From: Planctomycetota bacterium
Lineage (GTDB): Bacteria > Planctomycetota > PUPC01 > DSUN01
Assembly (NCBI GenBank): GCA_035384565.1
Contig: DAOOIT010000021.1
Coordinates: 2,560 to 66,559 of the forward strand
Length of the DNA stretch: 64,000 nucleotides
Direction of reading: 5' to 3'
The notes below the pieces were generated by a model. The model saw only the letters and a program-made list of their open reading frames with translations, made no database searches and had not been told where the DNA came from. Of the stretch, positions 22,501 to 23,449 are shown in pieces (within the stretch, counting starts at the first letter, position 1; each line of letters begins with the position of its first letter). Both the position numbers and the translations under genes were made by a program.

Positions 22501-22665
22501 CACTCGGCCACACGCTGCGTGCTGCGGACGAGTCTGCCCGTCACCCAGGCCCTGAGCACGAACCTCCTCGAGGAAGGCGGCGAGCCGCTACCCCTCAAGG
22601 CCGGCGCCATCGCCCTCGACCTGCGCCCGTTCGAGATCAAGACCGTGCGGCTCAGGCCGGCTTGA
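19531..22665 (+). CDS. Glycoside hydrolase family 38 alpha-mannosidase
   Basis: ATG at 19531 with GAAGGAG 10 nt upstream. GH38 catalytic region HSHIDVAWLW, WLPDVFGYS and FHDIIPGSSI. The protein is 1044 aa. Confidence 0.85.
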   Translation: MALTTEWRSRIEQWRNTLEKLCYRKLSDVALSGFVTHEQLRPREALKRPFKPMPVGTPWGAKWEYAWFRAAVTLPKEAKGEWIVFRCGAGTGFTGDPGGEGRFIVNGREMGGRDWAHPQVILSTNARPGARFDILMEAYAGHGPMNCGGGPVPHGELTVPEPPAAQQTVKPCSLGIWDEEVFQAWLDVQTLLELRDKLDPDSLRVSEIDEGLRQFTLIADLELPRAEMLATIRAARKRLKPLLECTNGSTAPLLYCYGHSHIDVAWLWPLAETERKCARTFATQLTLMEMYPEYKFLQSQPHLFRMTQRLYPDVYARIKAAAKRGQWLSEGGMWVEADTNVSGGEALIRQFLHGKRFYRDEFGVDCELMWLPDVFGYSGAMPQIMAGCGIKYFSTQKIFWNYNGGDPFPYNTFWWEGIDGTRVLSHFHNDYNSQTNPATLIQRWKERVQKDGLNARIVPFGWGDGGGGPTRLHLEFLRRQRDLEGAPRTVIASPLDFFHAEEARRSDWPVYVGELYYQCHRGTYTTQARTKRGNRKCEFALREAELWGAAAAAAGKLRYPAAKMDEAWKGVLLNQFHDIIPGSSIHRVYEEAEALHAQVLATATSVAASAAKALAAAPHSALRTPHSIAVFNSLSWDRLALVPLPKGFKGAESNGQGLLTQRIGGTLYAEALLPSCGWTTLAVGGASLPRVPRRGDTPPTVVKATERGMENDLIRLRLNDRGEIVSLVDKATGRELAAAPMNAFRLFKDVPRWFDAWDIDSTYELAPVELPEKAAIEVVATGPLAAVLRITRKISDSAVTQEVWLRRGSRRVEFRTKIDWRERHKLLKVAFPTTLHANEAIHEVQFGHLRRPTHRSRPYDADRFEVANQKWTALAEEDRGAAVLNDCKYGVNALGGSINLTLLRSPLAPDMTADQGLQEVTYALTAWNGSFFASDLVREAYEVNVAPLVVPGGAGEGSLFQLDAPNVVIETVKPAEDGSGDLIVRLYEAKHSATRCVLRTSLPVTQALSTNLLEEGGEPLPLKAGAIALDLRPFEIKTVRLRPA
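21578..21630. repeat. Divergent copy of the 55-bp palindromic element (family 2) inside the GH38 CDS
   Basis: gtgggcggggcgtctctgccccgcgtcccgcggcgtggggacacgccgcccaca encodes ...GGASLPRVPRRGDTPPTVV in frame. Confidence 0.45.
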
Positions 22666-22690
22666 AGGCCGAGAACGCCTGTGGTATAAG
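22662..22690 (+). promoter_or_regulatory. Near-consensus sigma70 promoter for vapBC: TTGAAG, 17-nt spacer, TGgTATAAG
   Basis: The -35 overlaps the GH38 stop codon. The extended -10 (TGnTATAAG) is at 22682-22690, ~45 nt upstream of the vapB ATG. Confidence 0.45.
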
Positions 22691-22733
22691 GAGATTGCGG
22701 GGGCAAACGCCCCAGGTCGCCAAGGAGCGAGCC

Positions 22734-22949
22734 ATGACCTATAGGGGACACGTCGAGAACGGGGTCGTGGTGCTCGATGAGCCGGCGCCGCTTGCGGAGG
22801 GGACCAGGGTGCGCGTGGAGCCGGACGAGTCGGGACGCGAACTCACCCTTGCTGAACGCTTGAAGGATGTGATCGGCATCGTGAAGGGGCTGCCGCCTGA
22901 CTTCGCGGCTCAGCACGACCACTACATCCACGGGACACCCAAGCGATGA
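22734..22949 (+). CDS. vapB: VapB-like antitoxin (71 aa)
   Basis: ATG with AAGGAG upstream. Its stop overlaps the vapC start in ATGA (22946-22949). Confidence 0.55.
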   Translation: MTYRGHVENGVVVLDEPAPLAEGTRVRVEPDESGRELTLAERLKDVIGIVKGLPPDFAAQHDHYIHGTPKR

Positions 22950-23347
22950 GGGAGACGTTCGCCGACACGTTCTACTACCTGGCCATGCTGCACGCGGACG
23001 ACGCGGCGCACGAGCGAGCCGTCAAGTTCTCGAGCCAACTGACCGGGCCTACGGTGACGACGGCGTGGGTGCTCACCGAGCTTGCGGACGGCTTGGCGGC
23101 GCCTGCCACACGCGGGAGCTTTGTGCGGCTCCTCGCCTCGCTCCGCGCGGACCACAAATGCATCATCATTCCTGCGTCGCAGGAGCTTTTCGAGTTGGGC
23201 ATGGGACTGTATCAGGAGCGCCCCGACAAAGGGTGGACGCTGACGGACTGCGTCTCCTTTGTCGTCATGAAGGATCGTGGGATCCGCGACGCCCTGACTG
23301 CTGACCACCACTTCGAGCAGGCCGGGTTCACGGCTCTCCTGGGATAG
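22946..23347 (+). CDS. vapC: PIN-domain toxin VapC
   Basis: 133 aa. Acidic PIN residues in the expected spacing (FADTFYY..., LTDCVSFVVM, DHHFEQAGF). A 4-nt start/stop overlap with the antitoxin is typical of type II TA pairs. Confidence 0.7.
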   Translation: MRETFADTFYYLAMLHADDAAHERAVKFSSQLTGPTVTTAWVLTELADGLAAPATRGSFVRLLASLRADHKCIIIPASQELFELGMGLYQERPDKGWTLTDCVSFVVMKDRGIRDALTADHHFEQAGFTALLG

Positions 23348-23414
23348 CCGCCCTCGACCTGCGCCCATTTCGAGATCAAGACCCTCCGCCTCAAGCTCTC
23401 CTGAGCCACTCGCG

Positions 23415-23449
23415 CCCCTCCCGCGGGCCAACGCGGCCCGCGGGAGGCC
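23415..23449. repeat. REP-like GC hairpin, copy 2
   Basis: cccctcccgcgggcc aacg cggcccgcgggaggcc. Confidence 0.5.

Follow-up and report, generated by a model that had tools for sequence, protein, structure and literature searches.

A toxin–antitoxin cassette between two copies of the 3′ end of an α-mannosidase gene in a Planctomycetota bacterium

The locus described here raises the question of how a small toxin–antitoxin (TA) module can come to lie inside the 3′ end of a coding gene and still leave that gene whole. It is found in a 64,000-nucleotide stretch of Planctomycetota bacterium DNA (assembly GCA_035384565.1, contig DAOOIT010000021.1, positions 2,560 to 66,559), referred to below as the window, in which a vapBC-like cassette lies between two copies of the last 56 nucleotides (nt) of a GH38 α-mannosidase gene. 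How chromosomal TA modules spread when they carry no mobility genes has long lacked a full answer. A first-pass annotation of the sequence had proposed that the cassette was inserted in the 3′ end of the GH38 gene, between two copies of its terminus, with the upstream copy keeping the open reading frame (ORF) whole. This is borne out by the comparisons below. It had also likened the event to site-specific integration of the kind seen at tRNA genes, which is not supported: there is no recombinase within 6 kb, the cassette has diverged together with its flank, and no attachment (att) site is common to the cassette family. The explanation that we favour, and consider probable though some way from secure, is an old TA insertion by a sequence-independent event that duplicated its target, followed by homologous recombination between the resulting repeats.

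The duplicated terminus and the empty site

The GH38 gene is intact and runs from 19522 to 22665 on the forward strand, on which all the features described here lie, and its product ends in ALDLRPFEIKTVRLRPA* (the asterisk marks the stop codon). Its identity follows from the ORF list, from Pfam matches (Glyco_hydro_38N, Alpha-mann_mid, 38C and 38C2, together residues 258–1042) and from orthologues that are 79–90% identical to it. The last 56 nt of the gene, with the TGA stop codon (22610–22665), are the working copy of a direct repeat, here called copy 1, which aligns with positions 3528–3583 of an orthologous locus, L015 (loci other than the window are given as L and a number). Copy 2, at 23348–23404, is separated from it by an insert of 683 nt, which consists of a leader, an antitoxin gene and a toxin gene.

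The best local alignment between the GH38 end and the region after vapC pairs 22611–22657 with 23349–23396, with 42 identities in 47 and one 1-nt indel. Guided by orthologues, the repeat can be followed to the stop codon (22610–22665 against 23348–23404, 46 of 55 positions identical plus one extra base), and alignment with L177, a second orthologous locus, takes it through the stop codon and gives the length of 56 nt. The recurrence of the last ~55 nt of GH38 after vapC had been noticed in the first-pass annotation, as had the reading of the second copy, FEIKTLRLKLS*, which translation confirms; the one extra base frameshifts copy 2. The upstream copy completes the mannosidase ORF and keeps the gene whole.

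The shortness of the repeat would, on its own, speak for chance similarity or an assembly artefact, but this explanation has practically no life left in it: the alignment scores 64 against 16.7 ± 2.5 for shuffled sequences (maximum 30 in 500 shuffles), copy 2 lines up, in the same order, with the GH38 end and hairpin at the empty site L015, and the whole arrangement is 99.95–100% identical in six independent assemblies (L001–L006, from different samples and assemblers), which therefore rules out an artefact. No second place in the 64-kb window scores above 32 against the GH38 terminus.

The empty site was found by scanning genomes with the GH38 protein. L015 carries an orthologue 86% identical to that of the window, without the cassette and with a single terminus, and so provides the comparison with a vapBC-free relative that had been proposed as a check. 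Its gene ends in …FEIKTLRLKFA*, and 10 bases further on begin the hairpin, the downstream sequence and the EF-hand gene known from the window, in that order. By blastn, window positions 19508–22643 correspond to L015 453–3561 and window positions 23349–23648 to L015 3529–3825; 33 nt of L015 are thus represented twice in the window. Since copy 2 and the hairpin are continuous with native sequence in L015, the alignment shows which copy is ancestral, the downstream one being the original end of the gene, displaced, with the cassette sitting inside the original 3′ end.

The two copies have not diverged evenly. Over a 34-nt core they differ at one position and by one indel, and over the 21-nt tail at 8 positions. 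The tail of copy 2 matches L015 at 17 of 21 positions and L185, a second empty site, at 20 of 21. The tail of copy 1 (VRLRPA) has diverged from the ancestral type, and that of L177 (VRLKLS), GTGCGGCTCAAGCTCTCTTGA, is intermediate between copies 1 and 2. Within the core, both window copies have a G in CCTGCGCCC that is absent from all the other lineages compared. Because they share a base found in no other lineage, the copies have exchanged sequence within their own lineage, which indicates gene conversion.

A stretch of the GH38 gene further upstream, at 21150–21740, is hypervariable among orthologues, with 63–83% identity and indels compared with 90–96% on either side.

The cassette genes and their surroundings

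The leader (22666–22733) is a 5′ untranslated region of 68 nt with an AAGGAG ribosome-binding site, and homologous leaders occur in L177, L183 and, in two copies, L182. It is followed by the antitoxin gene (22734–22949, 71 residues, AF2212-like at the N-terminus) and by the gene for the PIN-domain toxin, VapC, a predicted RNase (22946–23347, 133 residues). Both ORFs are intact and they overlap by ATGA.

Scans of the two proteins of the window against Pfam and NCBIfam gave no match even at E ≤ 10, and their identification comes from their families. The 133-residue protein has 2724 homologues. Pfam PIN (PF01850) is matched by 28 of 29 aligned VapC family members, and the toxin family profile matches VapC20 of M. 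tuberculosis (PDB 5WZF) with E = 1e-12 over positions 3–129. D7, E45 and D120 are invariant in the family and D101 is at least 90% conserved; the window protein has all four. It is the only one of the 29 aligned members that gives no Pfam PIN match at E ≤ 0.01, and it keeps all the invariant residues. The antitoxin family profile matches AF_2212 (PDB 2NWT) with E = 1e-5 across its N-terminal 36 positions; Pfam PF01954 is matched by 6 of 26 family members, the window antitoxin not being among them, and the C-terminus carries a conserved motif, LPxDxAxxHDHYxHGxPKR. The same antitoxin–toxin pair is found in about 55 homologous loci. Since most of the differences between lineages are third-position changes (19 of 28 for the antitoxin, window against L177), both genes are, as read from their codons, under purifying selection. 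On these grounds "vapBC" is a fair name for the pair, the toxicity being putative.

The closest relatives of the cassette (L007, L013 and L174–L176, 79–83% identical in amino acid sequence) lie in unrelated contexts, beside a cellulase, RhuM and others, with no GH38-like sequence near them, and their nucleotide homology to the window is limited to the coding region and the ribosome-binding site. The short contigs L174–L176 were considered as examples of a donor arrangement next to GH38, and none had one. Similarly, L007 (79% VapC) was considered as the continuation of L016, a truncated GH38 contig from the same lake sample, and was rejected on finding that its upstream ORF is unrelated to GH38. 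More widely, a metagenome scan with VapC gave relatives of 38–61% among the matches listed, the plasmids searched gave relatives of only 35–39%, and a scan of viral contigs gave one locus.

The putative promoter that the first-pass annotation had placed at 22662–22690 and called near-consensus, TTGAAG-17-TATAAG, does overlap the GH38 TGA stop codon as stated. The block matches the sigma-70 consensus at 9 of 12 positions, with TGG before the TATAAG and hence a TG upstream, and it is not called by the sigma-70 scan because the −10 hexamer ends in G and not T. A scan of 22300–23800 for consensus promoters and terminators called nothing. The −35 hexamer is a composite that straddles the junction between stop codon and insert, TTGA coming from the GH38 end and AG from the insert. 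A 28-nt block (TTGAAG to TATAA) is nearly invariant in five leader copies from lineages 12–19% apart, while the next ~12 nt are free to vary; this invariance supports a promoter or operator function. The occupied alleles read cTTGA at the stop codon, and the two empty alleles and copy 2 read cCTGA, a change that could be either promoter-improving or merely phylogenetic.

Beyond copy 2 lies a G+C-rich hairpin with a 13-bp stem (23417–23447). The fold of 23395–23475 has a predicted energy of −48.4 kcal/mol (z = −4.9); the hairpin lacks a T-run, and the terminator scan does not call it. The first-pass annotation had described the cassette as followed by a REP-like hairpin. At the empty site L015, too, this stem comes after the end of GH38, and the hairpin is therefore native to the downstream side of GH38 and does not belong to the cassette. 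The stem CTCCCGCGGG/CCCGCGGGAG forms hairpins at three sites in the window (14201–14227, 23418–23446 and 24089–24115), with seven half-sites against 1.5 expected by chance. The full hairpin of 23417–23447 is unique in the window, and its stem motif recurs at the two other gene ends; that at 24089–24115 is placed between convergent genes. These three hairpins without T-runs may be a lineage-typical terminator or an element resembling the repetitive extragenic palindromes. An Rfam scan of 22300–24200 gave sub-threshold chance hits only.

Further downstream, the gene for an EF-hand protein (23698–24075; Pfam EF-hand_7 and EF-hand_1), homologous to L015 4060–4413, is the synteny anchor. Between it and the hairpin, a short ORF, MKQLSVRGFAHVVSGFATLAQAQRT* (23578–23660), resembles the decayed start of a gene for a small secreted protein. 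L185 has this gene intact 3′ of GH38 (from 6225), and in L015 it can still be recognised (from about 3761).

The GH38 3′ end in other lineages

Eight alleles of the GH38 3′ end were assembled from full-length orthologues and contigs. Two of them, L015 and L185, are empty and have a Leu-type tail (KTLRLK..). L181, with a Val-type tail, has no cassette in the 430 nt available. The window and L177 carry the cassette described above, which we call cassette #2; L183 carries a related cassette #1, its toxin gene interrupted by an insertion sequence; and L182 carries cassettes #1 and #2 as a tandem array. In the last allele, represented by L178–L180, a different TA pair (a FitA-like RHH antitoxin and a PIN toxin) lies directly 3′ of the stop codon. 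In L178, a relative from Lake Tanganyika, this pair is at 6217–6880 with a toxin of 125 residues, and a TTGACT overlaps the stop codon. A PIN-type TA module is thus seen at five of the eight orthologous GH38 3′ flanks. The neighbourhoods of the orthologues are also rich in further defence and TA genes, namely a HEPN/nucleotidyltransferase pair, a gene for a TIR-domain protein and one for a BrnT toxin (L183 7185–9198; L178 822–1103), and there is no conserved synteny upstream of GH38 across the lineages.

In L177, whose GH38 C-terminus is 90% identical to that of the window at the protein level, the same cassette lies in the same place, and the left junction is the same in the window, L177 and L182. 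Among these three, cassette #2 is 86.4–88.6% identical and the GH38 flank 85.8–88.2%. Since cassette and flank have diverged equally, the insertion is shown, as judged from these identities, to be an old resident inherited with the gene and not a recent integrant; it is shared, and has co-diverged, in at least three lineages that are 12–14% apart.

The array in L182 (3404–4297) has the order GH38 tail, antitoxin #1 and toxin #1, second GH38 tail, cassette #2. The two tail copies (3404–3459 and 3788–3843) are identical at 54 of 56 positions and bracket cassette #1, whose toxin gene has suffered a large internal out-of-frame deletion. In L183 (6199–6520) toxin #1 is cut after about 12 codons by the insertion sequence. 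Given a deletion in one lineage and an insertion sequence in the other, antitoxin #1 has thus been orphaned twice, independently, and both loci show decay of the toxin first, with the antitoxin retained.

The closest pair in the GH38 tree, at 89.7%, is formed by an occupied allele (L177) and an empty one (L015), and the occupied alleles form no clade. L015 carries a tail of the copy 2 type, which is the remnant expected from a crossover between the repeats. It has thus probably lost the cassette by precise excision, regenerating an intact gene.

Origin of the insertion

About 53 loci with homologous cassettes were surveyed for repeats between their upstream and downstream flanks, using a threshold score of at least 44. 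Nine of them, the window included (about one in six), reach it, with repeats of 37–229 nt. Control positions of the same geometry do so in 0–2.6% of cases overall: none of 384 random positions in the window and 7 of 597 in the GH38 loci, while a control restricted to the same loci gave 5 of 28 real positions against 9 of 350 control positions (Fisher p = 0.002). The repeats are 79–95% identical and come from unrelated metagenome contigs, and in at least three loci they represent the 3′ end of a neighbouring gene, the displaced copy having decayed. In L114 (2462–2690/3514–3737) the repeat comprises 229 nt from the end of a sigma-factor-like gene, and its displaced copy carries a premature stop; in L131 (2549–2655/3404–3510) the final 107 nt of hsdM are repeated, and copy 2 there directly adjoins the hsdS start codon; and L110 (2231–2288/3033–3090) repeats the end of a convergent DUF1501 gene. 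The repeat is a promoter region in L013 (5606–5744/6465–6596) and other local sequence in L133 (1558–1653/2488–2583); the remaining loci are L161, L123 and L154.

On this basis, we propose that a type II TA module entered the original 3′ end of GH38 by an illegitimate, sequence-independent event that duplicates its target. The candidates for this first event would be a staggered break that was filled in, or a switch of template during replication with re-priming 56 nt upstream. At a gene end such an event would be tolerated only where the duplication restores the ORF, and selection would keep those cases. The two repeats would then have served as substrates for homologous recombination, in which they would still be active and which would have left its traces as gene conversion in the window, a tandem array in L182 and probable precise excision in L015. 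Because the native hairpin now lies beyond the cassette, GH38 transcription could read into it, and the module presumably behaves as a classical VapBC pair, the antitoxin both neutralising the toxin and repressing the promoter.

Several observations weigh against this proposal. Microhomology at the junction is only suggested, by a TAGCCG after the vapC stop codon that is common to the window, L013 and L174. The unevenness between core and tail requires gene conversion of the core together with faster change of the tail; a foreign tail, brought in by import, would be another explanation. The right junction is the same for cassette #1 in L182 and cassette #2 in the window, which fits a single origin and equally a site-specific process. 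Copy 2 is seen in the window contig only, since the contigs of L177 and L182 end inside vapC. The GH38 tree, made by quick neighbour-joining, has low bootstrap values, and for L015 loss of the cassette and lateral replacement of the allele are not separable. Finally, the VapC and antitoxin of the window are themselves below Pfam thresholds, and their predicted identity rests on the family alignments.

The alternative that survives best, and that we would still call unlikely, is a one-sided or Campbell-type import. In this case a segment consisting of GH38 tail, leader and vapBC would have come from a donor lineage in which the cassette already lay 3′ of GH38. After pairing in the tail or body of GH38, it would have been joined illegitimately at position −56, or by single crossover of a circle there, so that the tail of copy 1 would be the donor's and that of copy 2 the recipient's. 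The tails do fit such an origin. That of copy 1 is Val-type (GTGCGG…cTTGA), as in L177, L182, L178 and L181, and that of copy 2 is Leu-type (CTCCGC…cCTGA), the type of the two empty sites, L015 and L185. Since two lineages that lack this cassette (L178 and L181) have the Val-type tail as well, it is a natural allele that a donor could supply. A tandem array as in L182 is moreover the expected product of a circle, or of unequal crossover at the repeat. The same Val-type tails in cassette-less lineages, together with the intermediate tail of L177, also weaken the idea that the copy 1 tail is foreign. A sliding comparison with seven orthologues found no mosaic breakpoint along the window GH38, the window-specific G is in both repeat cores and would not be supplied by a foreign donor, and cassette and flank are equally diverged between lineages. 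Import would in any case merely shift the origin of the first duplication into the donor.

A site-specific origin is somewhat less likely again. Here the 56-nt GH38 terminus would be the att site, and a recombinase encoded elsewhere would insert circular TA cassettes with a matching site. It would account for the right junction common to two diverged variants of the cassette (vapC stop codon, 2 nt, then GCCCTCGACC, GH38 position −56), for the array in L182, in which a copy of the site lies between the cassettes as serial integration would give, and for the patchy occupancy over the GH38 tree. There is also a hint of a defined element end. The insert ends 0–10 nt from the vapC stop codon in three of the nine repeat-flanked loci (window, 23347/23348; L110, about 3033; L131, 3393/3404), and cassette #1 of L182, at the window's own locus, likewise ends within this distance of the vapC stop codon (3787/3788). 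Ends near this codon are commoner than a uniform spread over 0–200 nt would give. Against this, precomputed Pfam annotation shows no recombinase, and no integrase, among the cassette genes or in the 6 kb to each side; the neighbours are GH123, EF-hand, 2-oxoacid dehydrogenase E2/E1, rubredoxin and DsbD genes. There are no inverted repeats or other conserved motifs at the insert ends, 22666 and 23347, and the closest relatives of the cassette lie away from any GH38-like sequence. The cassette has co-diverged with its flank, and the repeats at other loci are local sequences of very unequal length. A fixed attachment site does not fit such variable local repeats; a sequence-independent duplication does.

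Two further kinds of element were rejected. An insertion sequence, transposon or miniature inverted-repeat transposable element is not indicated, there being no terminal inverted repeats and a duplication of 56 nt here and of variable length elsewhere. Nor is an integron cassette: the only hairpin is the native GH38 element, present also at the empty site, and there is no integrase within 6 kb.

A bolder extension of the proposed sequence-independent duplication, which we put forward as a long shot, is that small PIN/AF2212-type TA cassettes are mobile but non-autonomous, and owe their movement to an unrecognised process that needs no integrase, makes long, variable target duplications (37–229 nt) and inserts DNA ending at the toxin stop codon. 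If this were true, the duplications would provide handles by which the homologous recombination of the host could excise the cassettes, stack them in tandem and insert them again, and there would be a concrete answer to the question of how chromosomal TA modules move.

It is useful to set the locus beside known systems. Integrase-mediated islands and prophages insert in the 3′ end of a gene and bring a replacement end, as do the tRNA and tmRNA islands, and e14 and phage 21 in icd of E. coli. As in the window, the insert lies between direct repeats of the end of the gene, the gene is left intact and the displaced end lies at the far side. The window differs in having no integrase nearby, in its size (683 nt and two genes), in the lack of a family-wide att site, and in being an old resident that co-diverges with its gene.

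The architecture more closely resembles the displaced ends of Rhs, contact-dependent inhibition (CDI) and type VI secretion system (T6SS) effector loci than integrase-borne islands. At those loci 3′ ends have been displaced and immunity genes orphaned, and the route suggested for this needs no recombinase (Kirchberger et al. 2017, PMC5361080). There too, modules enter at a conserved 3′ part, the old ends are pushed downstream with residual homology, and arrays grow; the orphan antitoxin #1 of L182 and L183 parallels the orphan immunity genes. In the window, however, the host is a housekeeping glycosidase, the end of which has no role in the module, and the insert is a cytoplasmic TA pair rather than a polymorphic toxin tip with its immunity gene.

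In Microcystis aeruginosa, a ParE/ParD-like module beside the orthocaspase gene MaOC1 is flanked by a pair of direct repeats, identical to each other and 152 bp long (Klemencic et al. 2021, PMC7935541). This is again a small TA module directly 3′ of a host gene, with long direct repeats. Its repeats are intergenic and contain inverted repeats, are not shown to be a duplication of the target gene end, and come with no empty site or comparative history. Compared with VapBC systems such as that of M. tuberculosis VapC20, the window has the acidic residues of the PIN toxin, a small overlapping antitoxin gene upstream and a putative promoter of its own, and it differs in its AF2212-like antitoxin, in proteins that fall below Pfam thresholds, and in a toxicity and an RNA target that are putative. 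Integron gene cassettes share with L182 the tandem arrangement of small promoter-proximal cassettes at one site, with repeated sequence between them. The window and L182 have no IntI and no attC-type imperfect hairpin, their repeat is host coding sequence, and each cassette has its own putative promoter.

A literature search gave no systematic treatment of target duplications around TA cassettes. The locus described here unites an occupied and an empty site, a duplication that rescues the gene, and three kinds of later recombination (gene conversion, array formation and probable precise loss). Taken alone, the window is of modest importance, being an old and well-behaved TA insertion and not an active new kind of element. 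What most deserves further work is the recurrence of the local-duplication signature in other cassettes of the family. Should the signature hold up, it would provide a searchable mark for TA insertion events, and would explain how TA modules can come to lie in coding regions at no cost, disappear again leaving no scar, and build up arrays with orphan antitoxins.

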